Below, in pieces: positions 19,660-63,122 of a DNA stretch of 64,000 bases. A program made the translations under genes and the position numbers. Source of the stretch: Octopus vulgaris (lineage: Eukaryota); NCBI GenBank assembly GCA_951406725.2, contig OX597817.1, positions 23,622,001 to 23,686,000 on the forward strand, given 5' to 3'. Positions within the stretch are counted from its first letter, which is position 1, and each line of letters begins with the position of its first letter. The notes beneath the pieces were generated by a model. The model saw only the letters and a program-made list of their open reading frames with translations, was not told the DNA's origin and did not search any database.

Positions 19660-21070
19660 AAAGGGTTAAAAATAGATTGGTTAAATTGTTCTGAAACATG
19701 GGCTTAAGCATTGTTTTCGTCGATGATATAACTGAAGCCAACTTTATGATATTACCCTTAACTTACATAAGGATTCCTATTTCCCATACCATAAACCCTC
19801 AACTAATCTAATATATACTGGCCCTCTCAGTAATCATTCAAAGGCTATTACAAGGAATTTAGTTAGAAATATTTCACTTAGACTTTCTAGATTACCTGTC
19901 TATGTTGATATCTTCAAAGATAAAGCCGTATTTATAACTCTGCCTTACTTAATGCTGGATATAAAGAAAAAGTTACCTATATTAACCTTATTGACATTAA
20001 TTGTACCTCTATTAATCAGAACAGGTGAAGGCGCATGGCTCAGTAGTTAGAGCGTAGAGCTTACGATCGTGATGTTTTGAGCTCGAATCCCGGACCGGGT
20101 TGCATATTGTGTTCTTGAGCAAGACACTTTATTTCACGTTGCTCTAGTTCACTCAGCTGTAGAAATGAGCTGCGACGTCACAGGTGCCAAGCTGTATCGG
20201 CCTTTGCCTTTCCCTTGGATAACACTGGTGGCGTGTATGAGGGGAGGCTGGTATGCATGGGCGACTGCTGGTCTTCCATAAACAACCTTGCCCGCATTTG
20301 TGCCTTGCAGGGTAGCCTTCTAAGTGCAATCCCCTGGTCAGTCATGACCGTTGGAGGTCTCAAATGAGAACAAGAAAGCGCATCATAACAGTTATAACAA
20401 TATAAATGTTAGTTCGAATAACAACACTAAATCGAAAAATATCATTTTGAAGCGTAAGGTAGATAACAGTTCTTTAAGAACTTTTTTTTACATTATGAAG
20501 GTAAACTTAGGACTTTTAACGATAATTACCCTAATAATAAGGTATGTTCTAGTAAAACTGTTTGGTTGATAATTCCATATGGTAAAGAGATCAAATCCAA
20601 CCTCCCTAACCAGATTCGTGAAGCTATACATAGGAATTTCTCCTAAAATTCAAGATACCATTCTATTATCAATTCACAACGAATTAGAATAGGGTTTTCA
20701 AACACCAAAAACCTGTCACAACTCATCTCTTCACATAACAATATAAATTCGATTCGCATTTATTTCCTTAGCAGGAGTTCTAAGACCAGAGACTCTGTTT
20801 ATCAATGTAAAATTAGTTCCGGTTCAGAAATCTTTGTTTACATAGGTAGTTCTTCATCTCAGTTGTCGAAAAGAATATCTAACCATTACTCTTCATTTAG
20901 ACATATCAATAAGCGCAGCAATACTGGACTTAGTAAATTAATTTGGTCTCTACAGGAACATAATAAACTATTTGGTTTGGAATGGAACATTCCATCTAGA
21001 TCCTTTCTATATGATGAAGGCAAATCCTTTTGTTGCAAACATTGGCAAAAACATACCTTTATTTCCTATA
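19660..21070 (+). mobile_element. Penelope-like element remnant (RT thumb, linker, GIY-YIG), interrupted by a SINE
   Basis: DITLNLHKDSYFPYHKPSTNLIYTGPLSNHSKAI...RLS; TVWLIIPYGKEIKSNL...IRIGFSNTKNLSQLISSHN; VYQCKI...VYIGSSSSQLSKRISNHYSSFRH...TGLSKLIWSL (GIY-YIG-like). Confidence 0.78.
20027..20360 (+). mobile_element. SINE family B (OR-like)
   Basis: GAAGGCGCATGGCTCAGTAGTTAGAGCG...; colinear with the copy at 10743-11095. Confidence 0.88.
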
Positions 21071-21498
21071 ATTAGTTTCTACCAATCTATAAAATTTCAC
21101 TTTTGGCTGTCTTCTTACATTTCATTTCCACTACATGTATCTACTTACATGCCTTTAAGCTTTATTTCCACTGATTTATCGCACTGTATTTCTTCATTCT
21201 TAATTTTCTGTTAATTTCTTTCTTTCTCCTCCTCCTCTTTCTCTTAATATGACTTTGACGTTCAATCTATTAACGGTATTTAAAAAAAACCAACTTGCCA
21301 GCATTCCCTTCGTCATATACGCGGTAACAACATTCGGTTAAAATGGCTTATTGATGTGCTTTTTTCTCTTTTTTTCCTGATGAGATGATTACATTGCTTT
21401 ACATCATTTTATTCCCTCGGGAATAATACTACTGTTTTCTTCAAAACATATATCGGAAGTACAACGATTTGAATAACACCTACGTTTAACTACATTTC

Positions 21499-27321: not shown

Positions 27322-28159
<838 letters not shown>

Positions 28160-28161
<2 letters not shown>

Positions 28162-28385
28162 TCCGTAATGTAGTAATAGGCAGTGGCTCTCATGGTTTTT
28201 GAACTTAACAGATTGGAAGTGTTATCATGTACATTGTTTTTTGTTGGTGGAAAAGATGGGTCTCAGAAAATATTCTGCTCAATACTGCAGATTTGCTGGT
28301 CAGTTGCTTAATCTTAACCAGGTGAGCATGTCCCATAGTGACAGGCAATATGTTCATCTTTGATCACGAGCATCTCTGATCACGA
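28160..28385. mobile_element. Family T partial copy, followed by a SINE A-like fragment (28385-28510)
   Basis: Colinear with the first ~250 nt of the 27488 copy. Confidence 0.8.
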
Positions 28386-35668: not shown

Positions 35669-36310
<642 letters not shown>

Positions 36311-36381: not shown

Positions 36382-36444
36382 CGATGACGACGACGATGAT
36401 GATGATGATGATGATGATTATGAAGAGGAGGAGGAGGAGGGTAA

Positions 36445-36895
36445 ATGCCTTGATGCACTACCAAGCTGTGACTCTCGTGGCTTTTGATCTTAACTGATTG
36501 GGAGTGTTATCATGTACAGTGTTTTGTCTTGGTCTAAAAGATAGGTTACAGCAAATATTCTGCTCCATACCATAGACTTGCTTGTCAGTTGCTTGACCTT
36601 AAACATTTGAGCATGTCCCTTAATGACTGATCATGAGCAGAAGTAATGAGTGTGTTGTTCATCGTTCTAAAGCAAACCTTATTTAGGGATTTTTTGAGCA
36701 GGATGGGCTATTCAACCTGAATAAAATTATAAATGGGCCCCACCTGCAAAACCATATGCTGTTTATTTTGATATGAGATTACTATGTCGCGCACATATGC
36801 TTGTGATGCATGAGCCTAGTGTACCCTTATCATGATGTGTAAAATGGGTTTCGTATATTTTACCCGTGTCACTTTGATGCGCTACTCTTTCATTC
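36445..36895. mobile_element. Family T older, internally deleted copy
   Basis: Colinear with the other copies; followed by (AAC/AAT)n. Confidence 0.8.
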
Positions 36896-36979: not shown

Positions 36980-37770
36980 GGGCTATTGGAAATGGATTAA
37001 TTACTAGCAGTAAGAAGGTCAGGTTTGTGTTGGTTGGAAGGTTGTAAAGATAAAGCACTGTACAAGCACTTGAGAATGAATGAAACTGAAAATGGGTGTA
37101 TAAAGAAAAGAATGCATGGACAATTTCATAGGGATGTTGAACATAAGACAGTCAGAGAAAAAAGACGGCTATGGATGATTAAATGTGATTTAAAACCGGA
37201 AACGGAGGCTCCAATGTATGTTGCCCAAGAGCAAACATTAAGAACCAATTACATCAAATACAGAATAGAGAATGCGTCAGAAAGTGATAAGTGCAGAATT
37301 TGTAATCAAAATGGTGAAACCATTCGGCATATTACCTGTACACCGCTAACTCAGAAAGAATATAAGAGACGTCATGACAATATAGCAAGGATTGTCCATT
37401 GGACATTTTGCAACCAATATATTCTTGACAGAGCAAAATGTGGTACGAACATAAACACGAAGGCATCATCGAAAATGATAATGCAAAGATCCATTGGGAT
37501 TTTATGATTCAATACGGCCACGATATAGAGAATAGGATACCAGACATAGTGTTAATGGAGAAAGAAACCGAACGATACTGTATCATAGATATAGCATACC
37601 CAGCTGACAACAAGGTATGCGATAAGGAAGAAAGAAAAGTCGATAGATATAACAGGTTAGCTTGGGAGGTTAAGCGGTTTTGGTAGCTGAAAAAGGTGGT
37701 AGTAGTACCAATAATTTTCAGAGGCCTGGGAACAGTGATTAAAAATTTTGAAAAGTTCATGGAAATCAAG
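36980..37770 (+). mobile_element. R4/Dong-clade non-LTR retrotransposon C-terminus (CCHC finger and restriction-like endonuclease), frameshifted
   Basis: MHGQFHR...LKPETE...AQEQTLRTNY...CRICNQNGETIRHI...YKRRHD; IHWDFMIQ...NRIPDIV...IIDIAYP...KEERKVDRY; lies directly after a (TAA)n tract. Confidence 0.9.
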
Positions 37771-40150
37771 ACAGCTGACTATATTTGGACGAAAACAAGT
37801 TAGCAAATGTTAGGTGGGATATCTTCAGAAATAACTGCGATCAAGCGCTCATCGGAAAATGACCAAAAAAATAAGAAAGCAAGGAAATGAAAAACCAGAC
37901 GAAGAGAGCAACTCTCCACGACTTTCAATTGAAAGACTGCCATCTGACCAGAACATGCAAACGTCTAGAGAAATAAATTGTAACGAACCTGATAAAAATA
38001 GCGAGGATAGTAGTAAAGAAACAATATTTGAAGACTACACTTTTACTGAAGAACATAGAGTCTTTGATAGAACCGAAGCAGAAAATCCTGAATAAGTTTG
38101 CAATTGTAAGACACGCTAATATGCATGATAGATAAACACTTCATAAGCTCTCAAATACAATCCAGAATAGAAAAACAAATTAAAATGTGAAACTATGTAA
38201 CAAAGGAAATTAGAAAAGAACTAAAACCAGATTTCATTGAATTAAATGAAATTATTTACGCGGCTGCTAATACAATTGAAACCAATTGCATGCCTCTGAA
38301 AAAAAAAAGATTCAAACCTTAGAAGAAATCCAAACTGGAAAAGTAAAATTGAAAAAGAGATTGAAATAATGAGAGGTGAAATATCAACATTGAATGAACT
38401 AAGTTGTGGAAAAAATATAAAACCCAGAAAAGGAAGAAAGATGAAAAGAAAACAGATTTTAACGAAGAGAAGAACTGCTTTCAATAAAGAAACACTGCAA
38501 CAAAATGTCCCAGCAAAATCTCAAAGAATACAAAGATTTGACAAGAGAAACAAAATTTACAAGCAAAATAAGCAGTTCACATTGAATGCCAAAGCATTCT
38601 ACAGTGAAATAGGGAAAGAGAAAATAAACTATGAAGAGACCCGCCGCCATTGAAGAAGTTGAAAGCTTCTGGATAAATATACGGAGTAATGAAAAGATTT
38701 ACAATGAAAATGCAGACTGGATTAGACACACGGAAGGATCCTACCAAATATTTCAAGGACAAGCATGGGGGGCATCACAGAAGCAGACCTAGTGATGACA
38801 CTCACGAAGGCTCATAAGTGGAAATCTAGTGATGATAGGGTGCACATTTCTGGCTCGCCAAGTTCCTGTGCGCACACGGAAGTTAGTCAAGTTAGACAAT
38901 GGAATTATGAGAGATCCTACGAAAACACCTGATTGCATAGCAATCACAAAGTTTACCAAAACCCGAAGAATAATGAAACCAAATTTCCCCCAAACTATCG
39001 ACCCATAACATATCTGTCTACCACGTATAAAATTTTCACATCCATCCTCCTGGAGAAAACATACAAATTAAATGAACGGAACAATATTTTCCCCATTAAA
39101 CAAAAAGGGTGGCGATGAGGCTCCTATTACACCACAGTTATGAAGTACTGACCACAAAAAGTATCTTCCATGGCGACTAACTTTCACCTTTAATTTTCTG
39201 CATAGCCCTAATACCCCTTACAGAATAGGTTATGGATATGAAATTGGCGACAAGAAAATAAGTAATCTATTTTATACAGATGACCGAAGACTCTACGGCA
39301 AAGGTGATAATGAGCTTGAAGGATTATTACGTACTGTTATAGCACTCAGTGATGACATTGGGATGGAATTATTTGTGTTGATAAATGTGCCAAAGCCACT
39401 TTCGAGAAAGGGAAACAGAAGACCTCACATTCAGTTGTGTTGGATATTGACACAGTCATAAAATAACTCGAGGAGGGACAAACATACAAATACCTCGGAA
39501 TAAATGAGGGCTCTGGCTTTTAACATGTAAATATGAAAGAGATGATGAGGAAGGAGTGTTATAGGAGAGTTCGAGCAGTTATAAAATCCGAATTAAATGC
39601 ACGTGACAAGGTGTTAGCTATAGATTCTTTAGCAGTTCCGGTTGTTATTTACAGTTTCTGTGTTGAACTAGAATATGAACGAAATAAGGAAGATTGACAG
39701 GAAAATCCGTAAGCTGCTGACTTGCAATAAGATGCACCACCTAAAGGTAGATGCAGATCGTCTTTACCCACCCAAAGCTGAAGGATGTCGTGCTTGATCT
39801 AGTTTGAAATATATAAAACTACCGCAATTGGACTGGCAAAATATCTTGAAATATCTAACGACTGGATTCTAAAGGTCATTGAAAACCACGAAAGATGTAA
39901 GAAGCCTCATTCTGTTATGAAAGAGAGCAAAAAATTTTCAAACTCGTTTATGCATAACACCCAGGTAGAACAGCATGAGAGAAGTGCAGCAACTGTAGTT
40001 GCAAAGAAGGTGACATCAATGACAAAACAAAATGCACTTGAACAATTGGCTGATAGGTGGGAACAAAAACCTCTGCATGGCAAATATGTGACCCGTAGCA
40101 AACAAACTGATGTACACCTATCAGTAGCAAGGGAGCTCAAGGCTAAAAGC
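37771..40150 (+). mobile_element. Second R4/Dong-clade element: N-terminal region and partly deleted RT
   Basis: PNWKSKIEKEIEIMRGEIS; AKSQRIQRF...QNKQF; NYRPITYLSTTYKIFTSIL; ISNLFYTDD; DDIGME; DKCAK; YKYLGI; WEQKPLHGKY; many stops and frameshifts. Confidence 0.88.
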
Positions 40151-40480
40151 AGAGAGTGTCTTAAGTTGTACGTCACACGTATTGAGAAGAGCATTGTCGC
40201 TGTGAATTTTCCTTCCTTTTCCCCTTTAATTTTATTTGTTTACATTTCAATTTTTATTTTTTCCTTTCTCTCTCTTTTTTTCTCTCTCTTCCCCTTTTCC
40301 TCTATCACATAATTCTGTAAATGAACCATCTTGTGTGTTTGTTTTAATGGCCTAATAATGTATGCAGTAGGTATCAGGAAGACACTCGCCCGAAATGGTA
40401 ACAGAACAGAAAGAAGTTAATGAAAATGGTAACGGTGTAATAATAGTAATGGTGGTAATACTGATAACAATAAACAATAC

Positions 40481-40925
40481 CCAACGGTGGCTCTCATGGC
40501 TTCTGATCTTAGCTGGCTGGAGGTGTTATCATGTGCATTGTTTTCTCTTGGTGTAAAGGACGGGCTACCACGGGTGTTCTGCTCAATACCACAGATTTGC
40601 TTGTAACTTGCTTGACTATGACCAGTTGAGCCTGTCCTTTGGTGGCTGACGATATGTGCATCTCTGATCTGGGACGGAAGTGGTGGAGGTGTCGAGCTAT
40701 GTGTTGAGAGGAGTTATTTGGGGTTTGCACGGTTCGCCTTTAGAAGCATGGGTGTTTTGTTCAACATCCTTGAGCAGCCCTTGTTCGGCGACCTTTTGAG
40801 CAGGTTGGGCTGCTCGATCTGGAGAGAGTTCCAGCTGGGCCCCGCCTGCAGGGTCGTGTGCTTTTTGTCTTGATATGGGATCGCTATGTCGCGCACATGT
40901 GGGGCTGTGGTGCATATCCTGGTTC
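40481..40925. mobile_element. Family T copy with A>G hypermutation
   Basis: Colinear with the 27488 and 35776 copies but carries about 35 A>G substitutions on the + strand. Confidence 0.85.
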
Positions 40926-40973
40926 TTGTGCATGAAAGAGAAGAAGAAGTAGAAGAAGAAGAAAAAGAAATAT

Positions 40974-41098
<125 letters not shown>

Positions 41099-56731: not shown

Positions 56732-57673
56732 TTATTGCTTATTTAGCTTGGGTTCGAATTTATCAATAAAATTTTTTTCTCTGATTTTCCTCTCGATTTG
56801 ACTTGGGCTGTGTAATTTGTAGAATGGAAATATTATATATATTTTCCGACCACATGCTGCTAGGTGGTTACTCAAAGGTATCTGACGGACATCTGGGTCT
56901 CTAATCTTTTGTCGGTGTACACGTGAGCGTTCTGATAGTGCATTTCCCGTCTGACCTACATATATATATATTTCTTCACAATTTGGGCATTTGATGCAGT
57001 AAATTAAATTTCTGCTTTTGCAGTTCATATTTGTGAATATTTTCCCGGTTTTTGTGTTTATATATTGGCCGGTATGTATGAAATGGCATGTGCCACATCG
57101 GCTATCATTGCATTTAGATACAGTGAATGTTTGGTCTTTGTTGCTAAGGTCAAATTTTGCCTTTGTTAGTAATTTTTTCAAGTTTTTAGGCTCTCTTTTA
57201 CTAAGAACCATAGCTCGATCCGTGATTATGTCTTTTAATTCATTATTTTGAGCAATGATTTGTAGGTTTGCTTTGGCAATGTTGAAGATATTCTGGTGAC
57301 ATGGGTTGTGTGTCACTATGAATGGTATGACTTGTTCTTGTTTTCCTCTTCCTTGGGCTGTCCTAAGTTGTTGTATGGGTATTTTTATAGCCTGCTGTAT
57401 GCCATTTTCTATAAGTAGAGATGGGTATTTTAGTTTGAGCAAAAATTCTCTTAGTTCTGTTAGGCGTTTGTTCCTGATATTTGCATCTTCTATAATGGTA
57501 CAAATTCTTCTGGCTAGGCAGTATGGGATGTTGCGTTTTGTATGTGGCGGATGGCACGATTTAAAATTCAGGTATTGATGTGTGTCTGTGTGTTTATAGT
57601 ATATATCTGTGGTGATGGTGGTGTCTTTTTTAATTACCATTATATTTAGGAATGGTAATTTGGTACTACTCAT
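56732..57673 (-). pseudogene. PLE RT thumb, Zn-finger linker and GIY-YIG endonuclease
   Basis: LPFLNI, TDIYYKHTDTHQYL, SCHPPHTKRNIPY, CNDSRCGTC, NLIYCIKCPNC...YVGQTG...ERSRVH. Confidence 0.92.
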
Positions 57674-58530
57674 CTCCTTTTAAATTGGAGAGATGGGTGT
57701 AGGTTGTTCAGGAGGATATTGAACTCTTCCAGAGTATTTAGAGATCCTGTCCAGATTATGAAACAGTCGTCAAGGTATCTCTTCCATGCCTTTTCAATAT
57801 GCTTTCTAAATCCAGTGCCATAGTTTACCTCCACCTCTTGGTAGAGTTGTTGTTCTAAGTATCCCATTACAGAGTTGGCGTAAACGGGAGCAAACCTCGT
57901 TCCCATCGCCGTGCCTCTAATTTGGATGTAATTCTTTCCATTGAAGAAGAATGTGTTGTTTTCTAGAATAAGTTTGACTGTGTCTAATATAAATGGCACT
58001 GTGAATCTGCTGGGAATCACTTCTCTATGTTTTTCTAACCTGTATTTAATCGCCTTTATTCCTAAATCGTGTGGAATATTGGTGTAGAGGCTTACCACAT
58101 CAAAACTTAGTAAAACTGAATTTGTTTCTGTTGTTTTGGGAAGATGGGACAGGAAGTCAAGGTCATCCCTGATGAAACAGAGTATGTAAGTACATAGTGG
58201 TTTCAAAACAATGTCAATAAAATTGCTTAGACGGTGGGTAGGGCATGCTGGACCAGCTATAATAGGTCTAAGTTTTAGGTCTTTTGGATGTAGTAATTTT
58301 ATGTACTCACTTTCTTGTTCTTTTACTGCCTGTTGAATATCTTTTGATTTATGTATTTTTGGTAAGCCGTAGAAGTTGCTGGGTTTTGGTTCGAAATTGG
58401 TGACGTAGTCTCTTTCATTATCGGTAAGTGAGTTGTGTTTTGAGATCAGGTTGTTGATCTTTTTCATGATGTGGTGGTCTATATTTGAGGGTATTTCACA
58501 ATATAAGGTTGTTTCCTTCAGTTGGTTCTC
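57670..58530 (-). pseudogene. PLE reverse transcriptase (frameshift at ~57670)
   Basis: FYGLPKIHK, LRPII, SFDVVSLYTNIP, QIRGTAMGTRFAP, WKRYLDDCF. Confidence 0.92.
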
Positions 58531-60241
58531 AATATATATACATATATTAATATAAACACACATGCAAACAAATATATATATATAAATTTTTTCTTACTTT
58601 CAAATGGTTCAATCAGTAGACTCCTAGCGGGGCAACGTCTTCGAGTGTTTCATTTGACTGTGCTTATATATTTACGAGCAAAACGGTCCCCGTCCGATAG
58701 ACGGTGCTGAGTTGTCAAACATTTAAACCAAATTTTCACAAAACAACTGATTTAACCTAAATTTGAAACACCAGCAAAAGAAGAAATAAAATAGACTTTT
58801 TTTCTATTTAAAGAAAAACGATTTTACAAATGCATGTTTCCACGGTTTTATCGATCACATTCTCAGCTGGAATCAATTTTTGTAATTTATTTCAAGACTT
58901 ATACACGCCCTGATACCGTCGGTATCCACATATCAAATTTGAGCACAATCGGATGGAAGATGCCCGAGATCCTAGAAGATACATACACAGACCGACAGAA
59001 ATTTTTTTATATAATATATATATATATATATTTATATATACATTGCCGTTCTCTAACAGTTGCCTAGGTTACATTTTGGGCATTATGCGAACCAACTAAA
59101 CACGCACGTATACTTTTTGTTTAGTTCTCTCCTTCGACCCGTCTTTACCTCGTTCACCTTATTCTTACATAACATTAGTAATCTTACGTAGAAAGAAATA
59201 TATAAACAAATATATTACATATATGTATATGTGTGTATTCGAGTTTGTGCTCGTGAGTAATAGTATGTGCGCGAATATTTTATGATAAAGCAGTGTTTGT
59301 GAACATCTAGCTATAATACTATCTCTACACTTGTCATTCAATTTAGTATTGTATGTTTCCTCAATTCGCATGAATTGTGTCTCTTAAAATAATGATGTGT
59401 AGAATTACACATTTAAGAGTAGAAACAATTGCAATGGCCTGTTACTGTTTTCGTGTCTTCAAACATATTTTAATATGGTACTAAGATGAAAAAGCCAAAC
59501 ATTAATCTACAGCTGCTAAGAACTATAGCAATCGATATGAGGTCAATTAAGAAAGATCTTTGCTCAGGTCTTTATTGATTACAAATTCATGTCTCTGTTT
59601 GATTTCCAATGGTTTCAAATGTATTGTTTGCCGTTCTATTTAATATTATCACACTGACTATAAAAGACATCTCTTCGGTATCCGGTGATGAAGAATATAA
59701 AAGGATGATAATATTAATGGCGTATATTAATGGTGACGTCTGTTAAATGAAAGTGGCTTTAGAAATAGATACCTTCTCTGGCGATTACGTCTACTCCCAA
59801 ACTCACGATATAGACGTTAGTTAAATAATATCTGTAATGCTTAGACGAAACTGTGTTTTAATTAACGAACATGGACCTGTATAAATTTCTCCTAAAGTAG
59901 ACACCGGAAAAGTCTAAATACAATTAATTACGTGGGTATACAACGTACAGAGAACAGAATATTAATTTCTGTTCTCCAGGCACAAAGTATTTATAGAGTA
60001 GAGCAGAGGATACGGAGTGTTCGAGTTTGTTATTGTTCTAATTAAAGAGATGTCACGTTATTTACAGATACAAAGCAGACCTACTTTTTGCACTTACTAC
60101 TTATTCTAAGACACTGAGACAGTTAGATGACGTTAATTTCATATAAAAGCAAAAAACTAGCACAGTTACAAATATAACTAATATTCATGTTAAAAGTATA
60201 TCATGAACCATAACATATGCTCACTTCTTTTTATTGAAATA

Positions 60242-60630: not shown

Positions 60631-61122
60631 TGAAATATAAGCCGCTGATTCCTACGAAGTTTCAGTTATATTTTATTGTTAATAATCTTTAAGAACGTAG
60701 ACAGAGGTATGTACGTGGTGTTGTCAAAAAGTATCCGACCTTTGACCCATCCCTTCCCCCCAAAAAAACAATATAAAAAATAACGCACCATTTTGATTTA
60801 GTCTCCTTCAAAACATTCGCCTTGGGAGTCTACACACTTCTGCCAGCGTTCCTGCCACTGCTGGATATCAGATGTTTGGATACTGTAGAGTTGTGCCCTC
60901 GAATTTTGCTTCATGTCTTCTGTTTACTCAAATTGTCTCCCTTTGAGTGTTTTTTTTTTGTTTGTTTTTTGAGCTTTGGGAAAAGCCAAAAGTAACTGGA
61001 AGCCAAGTCTGGGGAATAGAAAGCCTGGCGAACAAGTGGTGTGTTTTGCTTGACGAGGAATTTTGGGATGACGTGGGAGGAATGAGCGGGTGCGTTGCCA
61101 TGTATATATATATATATATATA

Positions 61123-61499
61123 TCTCTATATATAAACCGCAGTTTGTCTGTGCGTGTTTCTGTGCGTCTGTTTGCTTGTACCCTCACCCTGACCACGGCT
61201 TTCAACCGATTCTGATGAAACTTGACACACACATAGCCCAATGTCATAATTCAAAACTAACGCAGCGAAAATTTTGAAAAGTTCCCCCAGTTCTGAAAAA
61301 AATCGATAAATTCGACATGGGGTCGAGAATCAGAAACACAAACCGCAAACTAGGGGACGCAACTCCACCTTTTTTAACTAAAAAAAAAATTTACCATCAT
61401 TTTTTTCCATTTTTTTGCTATTTTTTGGCTATAACTCTCTAAAAATGCTTTATAGTTATTTCCCTTACAAACCTGAGCAACGCCGGGCGATACTGCTAG
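61123..61499 (+). mobile_element. Non-autonomous Helitron-like element inserted in the mariner
   Basis: 5' TC(TC)TATATATAAA, 3' hairpin plus CTAG|T. Confidence 0.75.
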
Positions 61500-61981: not shown

Positions 61982-62385
61982 AGGCGCAGGAGTGGCTGTG
62001 TGGTAAGTAGCTTGCTAACCAACCACATGGTTCCGGGTTCAGTCCCACTGCGTGGCACCTTGGGCAAGTGTCTTCTGCTATAGCCTCGGGCCGACCAATG
62101 CCTTGTGAGTGGATTTGGTAGACGGAAACTGAATGAAGCCTGTCGTATATATGTATGTATATATATATGTGTGTGTGTTTGTGTGTCTGTGTTTTTCCCC
62201 TAGCATTCCTTGACAACCGATGCTGGTGTGTTTACGTCCCCGTCACTTAGCGGTTCGGCAAAAAAGATACAGATAGAATAAGTACTGGGCTTACAAAGAA
62301 TAAGTCCCGGGGTCGATTTGCTCGACTAAAGGTGGTGCTCCAGCATGGCCACAGTCAAATGACTGAAACAAGTAAAAGAGAAAAG
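61982..62385 (+). mobile_element. tRNA-derived SINE family C (octopus OK-like), full length
   Basis: GGCGCAGGAGTGGCTGTGTGGTAAG A-box, GGTTCAGTCCC B-box, internal TA/TG microsatellite, AAGAG tail. Confidence 0.88.
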
Positions 62386-63122
62386 ATATATGTATAAAAT
62401 AAATATATAAAGAGCAACAGGCCATTTACATCTTTTATTTGGCATCTTGTCTTGTAATTATGGACGAGTATATAGGCCAAATTTTTTTCTTTCGTATTTA
62501 GTGTACATTCATATTTATACTTTCTCCGATAAATGAAAAGTTTGTAAATAGAGAAGCCAAATGAAATAGTACAGAAGAAAAGGAGCTGACAGTTCTTGGC
62601 TGCCCACAGGTCGGGTTGTCTTCGTCGCACAGCTTCAAGAGGGCGACGAAGAATCCCCAGGTAGTATTCGTTGTTAATTGTCGGGCCATAACGTAGGTCA
62701 CTGTCCACTAATGTGAAGCCATCTTTGAATTGCTTGTACCAGCCCATTATTTGTGTTTTTCTCATGGCATCATCTCCAAAGGCCTTCTTAATCTTCTTCA
62801 TTGTCTGGGCTAGTGTATCACCAAGTTTTAGGCAGAATTTGGTATAGTATCGCTGAATGCGCTCGTTCATCTTGACTTAAAAAGAAAAAGTCGCACAGTA
62901 CACTCTTCACGTCTGTACTCAACGCGTCACTACGAGCGAATCGTGCACCCTACGGCCACGAAAATTTCTTGCCCATGCTCAGGAATAACGCAGTCACCTA
63001 ACACCCATGTGGATTTTGCTCACACATTATTATTTAGTCCAAAATGGAAATCACGGTCTGGTATGTTTTGACTACACATCGTACTTTACATTGATATTTA
63101 GATTACAAAGCAACAGGTTCAT

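Follow-up and report, generated by a model that had tools for sequence, protein, structure and literature searches.

The locus and its repeats

The window, that is the whole 64,000-nt stretch of the Octopus vulgaris genome analysed here (contig OX597817.1, positions 23,622,001 to 23,686,000), consists almost wholly of repeats and microsatellites. It contains, at 40475..40923 on the + strand, an old copy of a 558-nt SINE-like retroelement which covers consensus positions 14-464 and is loaded with A>G changes; we refer to it as the 40475 copy. Sister copies lie on the same strand: a young one with tandem 5′ duplications at 27554..28088 (not loaded; A>G 3, T>C 1), an old partial one at 28158..28372 that was absent from the list of the first-pass annotation (A>G 3, T>C 2), a young 5′-truncated one at 35800..36310 (A>G 2, T>C 4) and an old one with internal deletions at 36443..36879 (A>G 2+2, T>C 2+1). 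One exact 33-nt motif of the element marks at least 10,253 copies (5,084 on the + and 5,169 on the − strand) in the genome searched, whose assembly totals 2.8 Gb in 227 contigs.

Copies of the element sit in (AAT)n arrays and have one fixed 3′ base, followed by AAT repeats, and 5′ ends that are variably truncated, duplicated or inverted. When copies were chosen on the central part, 28 of 29 ended exactly at position 558, with 5′ starts anywhere between positions 1 and 20; of 99 copies taken unselected whose 3′ end is intact, 34 do not begin before position 50. A fixed 3′ end, an AAT tail and a variable 5′ end are the anatomy of target-primed reverse transcription, so that the + strand is the RNA sense strand. 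The first-pass annotation had left the polarity open and allowed for an antisense or read-through RNA; the 5′ truncations settle the polarity, and an antisense template is thus not needed. The anatomy of a non-autonomous non-LTR element is present, namely the fixed 3′ end, the simple-repeat tail and 5′ truncation, inversion or duplication. An Rfam scan of one locus (L020) gave three matches, all far below the gathering score, and no tRNA, 5S or SRP RNA; since Rfam found no head of the tRNA, 5S or 7SL type, we term the element SINE-like. At another locus (L096, upstream of 1098), a 5′-truncated copy follows an inverted piece of its own 5′ part, as in twin priming. Two further copies (L175:953-1395 and L181:635-1077) are both cut at position 116 behind the same non-AAT sequence, which may reflect a duplication or a chimeric source.

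The 40475 copy lies in the (AAT)n tail of a decayed R2-like LINE, of the kind with a restriction-enzyme-like endonuclease, at 38300..40423 on the + strand. Near 40158 this host LINE lacks ~570-690 nt that are present in its sisters. The sister loci match Pfam RVT_1, and their best relatives of solved structure are R2 proteins; in the window, Pfam searches of four frames returned a sub-threshold zf-RVT match, two unrelated weak matches and nothing else, and one solved-structure search gave no match. Dong/R4-type LINEs target TAA repeats, and by this targeting we take the host-type LINE to be of the Dong/R4 type. The 3′ fragment of a second R2-like LINE (36990-37750; weak zf-RVT, E 3e-4, below the cut-off) lies between the AAT tail of the 36443 sister and the host LINE; these elements form a series of nested insertions that sit in AAT arrays and lie without exception on the + strand. 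Elsewhere in the window are frames with what we take to be motifs of a Penelope-type reverse transcriptase and GIY-YIG endonuclease (56732-58593, −; 20647-21075, +), and others that resemble Tc1/mariner transposase fragments (1881-2420, 60911-61183 and 62355-62876).

Directly 5′ of the 40475 copy is a degenerate (AAT)n array (40424..40474, +) which is itself rich in A>G, 11 of its 33 As being G, with four GGT triplets. In 96 other degenerate AAT arrays GGT triplets number at most two each, although the total of A>G is not exceptional, 3 of the 96 reaching at least 11. The array is spanned, with 2 differences, by a contig of one of the related organisms compared below (organism B). The load seems, then, to extend into the 5′ array. 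On the other side, the 3′ junction (40924..41095, +) lacks the last ~95 nt of the element and is GAA-rich, then a pure (GAT)n microsatellite. This agrees with the annotation, according to which the last ~100 nt were absent: the alignment stops at consensus position 464 of 558, at 40923. The (GAT)n array cannot be supported as an edited tail, since such arrays also stand behind unloaded copies.

A one-sided load of A>G changes

The first-pass annotation had counted about 35 A>G changes in this copy against a few each of G>A, T>C and C>T, and these counts hold. Compared with a majority consensus of the three sisters that it named (412 columns), the copy has 36 A>G, 8 C>T, 7 T>C and 7 G>A. Pairwise comparison of 40487-40908 with the same sisters gives 38, 40 and 39 A>G, and the sisters differ from one another symmetrically, with 4 A>G per pair. 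The reference for the main counts was a consensus of 24 old copies, those with a non-A>G divergence above 6%, over 423 compared columns. By this measure 39 of 102 As have become G, as against 6/134 for T>C, 5/104 for G>A and 7/83 for C>T (Fisher test, A>G vs T>C, P 4e-11; A>G vs G>A, P 2e-9). The strand asymmetry on the family consensus, which it had been proposed to check, is thus significant, and the A>G changes lie on the transcribed (sense) strand. At the old-copy mean of 3.35%, 3.4 A>G would be expected where 39 are observed (binomial P 9e-31).

The 39 sites are 40486, 40512, 40516, 40522, 40535, 40553, 40558, 40572-40574, 40576, 40620, 40641, 40673, 40676, 40682, 40713, 40731, 40732, 40736, 40746, 40772, 40774, 40777, 40783, 40787, 40812, 40822, 40826, 40828, 40834, 40844, 40851, 40856, 40867, 40878, 40883, 40899 and 40910. 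At these positions A outnumbers G by 712 to 30 in the old copies. G is therefore the derived state, as had been concluded from the retention of A in the sisters. The same retention of A by old copies rules out APOBEC activity or CpG decay in the sisters as an imitation of A>G. The site list, judged by eye, has no periodicity, and an effect of codon position in a coding subfamily was rejected.

Of the 44 As that have changed, 39 have become G. The transversions A>T (3/102) and A>C (2/102) and the opposite-strand transition T>C (6/134) compare with an old-copy background of 2.1%, 1.0% and 3.0%, respectively, and no other class is raised. G>A, at 5/104, is below the 8.2% of old copies, and the sense-strand G>A clusters of an APOBEC-edited retroelement were not found. 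The non-A>G differences number 33 (7.8%), compared with 8.7% for ordinary decay in old copies; the 40475 copy is therefore an old insertion with ~35 extra A>G changes. With 39 A>G at 38% of its As it exceeds both hyper-editing thresholds of PMC3197674, a minimum of 12 A>G and a minimum share of 20% of As. It falls short of the more than 90% A>G among mismatches expected of fresh RNA, having 39/72 (54%), and the remainder is at the level of neutral decay.

The changes had been described as clustered, with an untouched patch, and this did not stand. They are spread evenly, 2-6 per 43-nt bin, and both a runs test (P 0.80) and the longest unchanged run of 8 As (P 0.46) are at the level of chance. 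The adjoining host LINE has no A>G excess (A>G 19/544, T>C 15/441, G>A 27, C>T 25), which confines the load to the insert and rules out a regional mutator. Two positions of the window, 40477 and 40916, are A in place of the G found in other runs and in the family consensus; these are recent G>A changes of the assembled haplotype.

The G-rich form in the genome and in relatives

A genome search with the 40475 copy returned the copy itself and then matches of 81-82%, among the 40 of 4,874 candidates that were scored. Genome-wide, a G-rich 31-mer with up to 2 mismatches matches this locus alone, and so does a motif of the 3′ end and junction. A motif of the non-A>G differences has five other matches in the genome, all of them ordinary old copies with 1-7 A>G. 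The G-rich version, which the first-pass annotation had asked to be examined as a possible abundant subfamily or ancestral state, is neither: its motif is unique and old copies keep A.

Of 24 runs listed, 20 contain part of the stretch, with no RNA run listed among them, which speaks neither for nor against expression. Four were compared as contigs; the comparison used contigs only, from runs whose kind is guessed or unknown and whose sizes are genome-like, and the runs of organism E, with a small share, were left out. Run X2 is from organism A, with a sample and study other than those of the best-covering run. Its contigs cover 40492-40581 (1 other letter), 40644-40726 (0), 40697-40898 (0) and 40869-40950 (1), the single difference in the last being the ancestral G at 40916. 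Together these pieces take in 36 of the 39 A>G sites with at most 1 difference. Organism B contigs cross the 5′ junction (40390-40515 and 40487-40546) and keep at least 4 of 5 sites; over the 3′ junction, a contig of organism C (40851-40946) keeps at least 5 of 7 and one of organism D (40869-40950) keeps 4 of 4. The 3′ junction is crossed by contigs of runs X2, X8 and X10. Thousands of other short contigs derive from sister copies and show the consensus letters, as expected.

Organisms A-D are close relatives, differing by 1-3 per 100 nt, and the presence of the Gs at the orthologous locus in all of them makes the G state older than their split. The Gs, at the same locus in the contigs of an independent run and of three other organism labels, are not an assembly artefact. 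The check that the annotation had proposed finds them in DNA contigs and in relatives, under four organism labels. The 3′ truncation is common to organisms A, C and D and must likewise be old. The organism C run X8 skips ~60 nt (40790 to 40851) within 40742-40946, a deletion or replacement private to that ortholog. The A>G load of the 40475 copy is confirmed as real, genomic and inherited.

Sequence context and RNA folding

By 5′ neighbour, 14/24 As after A, 12/21 after T, 8/26 after C and 5/26 after G have changed; a 5′ G is depleted (5/26 vs 34/71 for the other neighbours, P 0.011), and 5′ A or T exceeds C or G (26/45 vs 13/52, P 0.002). Across the 114 unselected copies described below, the background rate of A>G is flat over 5′ neighbours, at 1.14-1.28%. 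By 3′ neighbour the changed fractions are 7/24 for A, 10/20 for C, 10/20 for G and 12/33 for T, and the test for G gives P 0.44. The ADAR-like neighbour bias that had been predicted is therefore present in its upstream part, the depletion of G at −1, and not significant in its downstream part, the enrichment of G at +1. Octopus hyper-editing is described as having a depleted upstream G, a weak or reduced downstream-G preference and an enriched downstream A, the last being a feature of invertebrate hyper-editing (PMC5625713). The 5′ order of the 40475 copy, A~T > C > G, matches the upstream-G depletion of that description (PMC5625713). The enrichment of A at +1 is absent, A being the least changed 3′ class (7/24).

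The element folds better than shuffled sequences (z −3.1), and the changed As are no more paired than others in its own hairpins (P 0.43). The lack of a tie to these hairpins, together with the even spread, makes a full-length duplex with an antisense copy the more likely substrate. Within the 64-kb window no inverted partner of the family was found, every family match being on the + strand, which favours import from another locus.

Other copies and the rarity of loaded ones

An unselected set of 114 copies at 97 loci, taken from the first 22 Mb of one contig regardless of A>G, has 1.19% A>G and 1.03% T>C, with a highest A>G count of 5. The genome was also scanned with motifs of A>G changes. 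The first three gave 0, 14 and 4 matches when three or four A>G out of six were required; the 40475 copy is in the last two sets, and the motif with 0 matches could not match the 40475 copy itself. A fourth gave 3 matches, namely the locus L082 and two copies with 3-4 A>G that are unconvincing. A mirror control gave 0 matches, with one T>C motif set against four A>G motifs. Of fully loaded copies, the three scans together are estimated to catch ~41% when old and 80% when young; as they found the 40475 copy alone, such copies are few at most, ~1 in 10,000. The annotation had also proposed a scan of other repeats. In a screen of 1,459 windows over 215 kb of repeat sequence, the 40475 copy alone stands out (P 9e-7), the next unrelated window having P 8e-4, and no second strong case was found. 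On the sense strand of one LINE copy (L094:1950-2450), 21 T>C stand against 8 A>G relative to sisters that are 83-86% alike; either a difference between subfamilies or a load on the antisense strand could account for this T>C excess.

Two young copies carry local clusters of A>G. L082:1372-1902 (G000:C28:3353580-3356611) has 10 A>G and 2 T>C, with 9 of the A>G in consensus 270-412, and L085:1269-1688 (G000:C30:11841881-11844912) has 12 A>G and 3 T>C, with all 12 A>G in the same interval; outside it, both have almost no A>G. Considering only the part outside the search motif, the 12 A>G of the two copies all follow A or T (12/87 vs 0/115, P 3e-5), and none of 54 As with a 5′ G is changed. These outside-motif sites overlap those of the 40475 copy in 4/4 cases for L082 (P 0.02) and 5/7 for L085 (P 0.07), so that the sites mostly coincide despite the older lineage of the 40475 copy. 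Changed sites in the 40475 copy, L082 and L085 include consensus 273, 274, 288, 376, 393, 398 and 409. The two copies have 7 A>G sites in common and may descend from one event. They are cleaner test cases than the old 40475 copy. Two other candidates, L084 (6 A>G, 4 T>C) and L069 (6 A>G, 0 T>C; 1 outside the motif), were not counted as edited.

The matches of one scan, 11-12 of 14, represent a single young subfamily. This subfamily of 12 copies (L068, L070, L071, L073-L081) on ten contigs has six common A>G, at consensus 308, 314, 315, 319, 467 and 476, and a seventh, polymorphic one at 358, none with a 5′ G. It was possibly founded by a lightly edited copy; having been found with an A>G motif, its count is inflated by selection. 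A second young subfamily (L010, L011, L016, L019, L091-L093) has four A>G, at consensus 237, 273, 274 and 316. Of 67 young copies, 18 have G at position 274, not all of them on the same background; the 40475 copy and L082 are changed there too. Among derived variants present in at least 3 of 76 young copies, A>G affects 9 of 123 A sites, compared with 2 of 160 T sites for T>C (post hoc, P 0.012); singleton variants in young copies are even (31 A>G vs 36 T>C). We treat this skew as a lead only, since transcription-linked mutation in the master copies could also produce it.

Origin of the load

The proposal of the first-pass annotation, that an edited RNA was written back into DNA, is supported. 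It had named three observations that would tell against it (a G-rich subfamily or ancestral G, A instead of G in DNA, and a lack of strand asymmetry or ADAR-like context), and none was upheld. Judging from the sequence, the 40475 copy is probably the product of an ADAR-hyper-edited sense transcript that was retrotransposed by a LINE reverse transcriptase. The source would be a sense transcript of the SINE-like element, probably a read-through RNA retaining some upstream (AAU)n. It would have paired over its full length with an antisense copy, the family having ~5,000 copies per strand, and ADAR would have deaminated ~40% of its adenosines. An R2-like (Dong/R4-type) LINE reverse transcriptase would then, in the germ line, have read inosine as G while copying the edited RNA, and target-primed reverse transcription would have inserted the copy into the (AAT)n tail of the older LINE, where it would have decayed neutrally by ~8% and lost its 3′ end.

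Several published observations bear on these steps. Cephalopod editing outside the nervous system is described as aimed at repeats, with ADARs broadly transcribed (PMC9068888). In human cells, ADAR1 is reported to edit mainly Alus embedded in pol II transcripts (PMC5974252), which agrees with a read-through source. Human L1 RNA, according to PMC8677026, is bound by ADAR2 with no editing detectable in that account. A loaded 5′ array likewise fits an RNA that carried upstream AAU repeats, microsatellites being weak witnesses. Dong-R4 LINEs are described as active in octopus (PMC13282606) and, to judge by the common AAT target, may have mobilised the element. The element resembles the partners of Dong/R4-type LINEs in its (AAT)n insertion, fixed 3′ end with AAT tail, 5′ truncation and R2-like nesting. 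Published divergences of 0.065 for 18 My and 0.09 for 25 My (PMC13282606) would put the event at ~20-25 million years ago for a divergence of 8-9%, if that clock applies.

Several observations count against this origin. The 3′ end required for target-primed insertion is absent from the 40475 copy, where a target-site duplication is also unreadable, the locus being a microsatellite; and there is little skew family-wide (1.19% A>G, 1.03% T>C in the 114 copies). The missing inverted partner in the window, the lack of a significant 3′-neighbour bias with A at +1 changed least, the possible single event behind L082 and L085, the one subfamily behind most matches of one scan, the single T>C control motif and the ADAR2 result on human L1 RNA weigh on the same side. 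The broken 3′ end is what a repair tract might leave, and it is rather unlikely that an existing copy was overwritten in place by the cDNA of an edited transcript, through RNA-templated gene conversion or repair. That the load reaches the 5′ AAT array, and that the 40475 copy and its host LINE show similar divergence (7.8%, non-A>G, for the copy and 9.7%, total, for the LINE), would fit such an overwriting. However, the orthologous pieces in organisms B, C and D all carry the Gs already, and no nearby inverted partner exists to make a transcript of the locus double-stranded. R2-type elements, moreover, bring upstream target sequence in with their RNA, which explains the loaded array without conversion. 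Retrotransposition and in-place conversion share an edited RNA as their source, and taken together these readings are highly probable.

One-strand A>G with no need of a duplex partner would also result from a single burst of polymerase error on the + strand, by T:dG mispairing of the polymerase-eta type or by second-strand synthesis from skewed dNTPs. Polymerase eta prefers a 5′ A or T as well, and the excess of changes after A or T noted above fits its WA motif. Such a burst is nevertheless distinctly unlikely. The restriction of changes at A largely to G, with transversions at background and no other class raised, favours deamination; 38% is far above the error rates that we presume for such polymerases; As with a 5′ C are still changed at 31%; and other copies, L082 and L085, have partial clusters at sites that coincide with those of the 40475 copy, a recurrence that we count for an edited RNA.

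Quite improbable, too, is a deamination of the DNA itself, in which ADAR would have acted in place on the + DNA strand paired with antisense family RNA. The dA of DNA/RNA hybrids is deaminated with the usual context preference, efficiently mainly at dA-C mismatches or with a mutant enzyme, as PMC5389660 has it, and action on a hybrid would end at the hybrid ends, as the load does. It should, however, hit either strand of resting copies, and the T>C motif gave 0 matches; in an insertion intermediate, moreover, it is the minus strand whose DNA lies in the hybrid, and T>C would result. Membership of the 40475 copy in an older G-rich subfamily or related family, or an assembly artefact, is very improbable and largely refuted: for it speak 39 further non-A>G differences from the young consensus, a unique 3′ end and a genome search that scored 40 of 4,874 candidates, but among those the next match is at 82%, the G-rich and 3′-end motifs match this locus alone, the five further loci with the non-A>G motif hold old copies of the usual kind (1-7 A>G), and contigs of four organism labels carry the Gs.

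Relation to known systems and implications

The 40475 copy works like a deaminase-hypermutated retroelement and differs from the known ones in enzyme, strand chemistry, element class and host. ADAR-linked A-to-G hyper-editing in retroviral DNA is described for RAV-1, avian leukosis virus and HTLV-2/STLV-3 (PMC8586724). The likeness to these retroviruses lies in dense one-strand A>G in a reverse-transcribed element, interpreted as inosine copied to G. The viruses as described there are exogenous LTR elements of infected cells or culture, whereas here a non-coding element of the non-LTR class has become fixed in the germ line of an invertebrate and is common to several species. With APOBEC-edited endogenous retroelements (PMC4866542, PMC2873906) it would share a deaminase burst during retrotransposition that left a heritable, strand- and context-biased hypermutated copy. 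Those cases arise by C-to-U on cDNA and show sense-strand G>A in vertebrate LTR elements, in contrast to the sense-strand A>G of this copy, in which G>A is at background (5/104). In the screen as these two papers present it, invertebrates served as the negative control and non-LTR elements were not covered. Octopus ranks with the most hyper-edited animals (PMC5625713), and hyper- or ultra-edited SINE RNAs (PMC3197674, PMC5625713) offer a third parallel, in the density (38% of As), the upstream-G depletion and the SINE substrate; there, however, the changes are in RNA reads and the DNA keeps A, while here G is in genomic DNA. Titles and abstract openings of mainly open-access literature yielded no account of a SINE copy that is A>G hyper-edited and fixed in a genome. 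Retrotransposon editing is reportedly discussed as a force in genome evolution in papers by Carmi, Knisbacher and Levanon.

Feedback of A-to-I editing into inherited DNA has often been proposed (e.g. PMC12941027) and rarely shown, and genomic A-to-G at edited sites is usually ascribed to selection 'unless' an unknown mutational route exists, in the wording of PMC7186786. The scale of what is described here is modest: about one fully loaded copy per 10,000, in a non-coding element, with nothing to suggest function or gene recoding. The finding opens an inexpensive test, in which every repeat copy is screened for A>G with regard to strand, as the mirror of the published APOBEC screens. Loads would range from the fully hyper-edited copy, via local clusters such as those of L082 and L085, to lightly edited masters, as perhaps in the 12-copy subfamily and the second one with four A>G, if A-to-I editing were a standing heritable source of mutation for octopus retroelements, with ADAR helping to write subfamily sequence; this is a tentative idea, towards which we lean less than away. 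The 40475 copy itself would be a dated fossil, common to several species, of a route from RNA editing to DNA in the animal group with the heaviest editing. By the clock of PMC13282606, if this applies, it implies that ADAR acted on germ-line RNA of retroelements about 20 million years ago.
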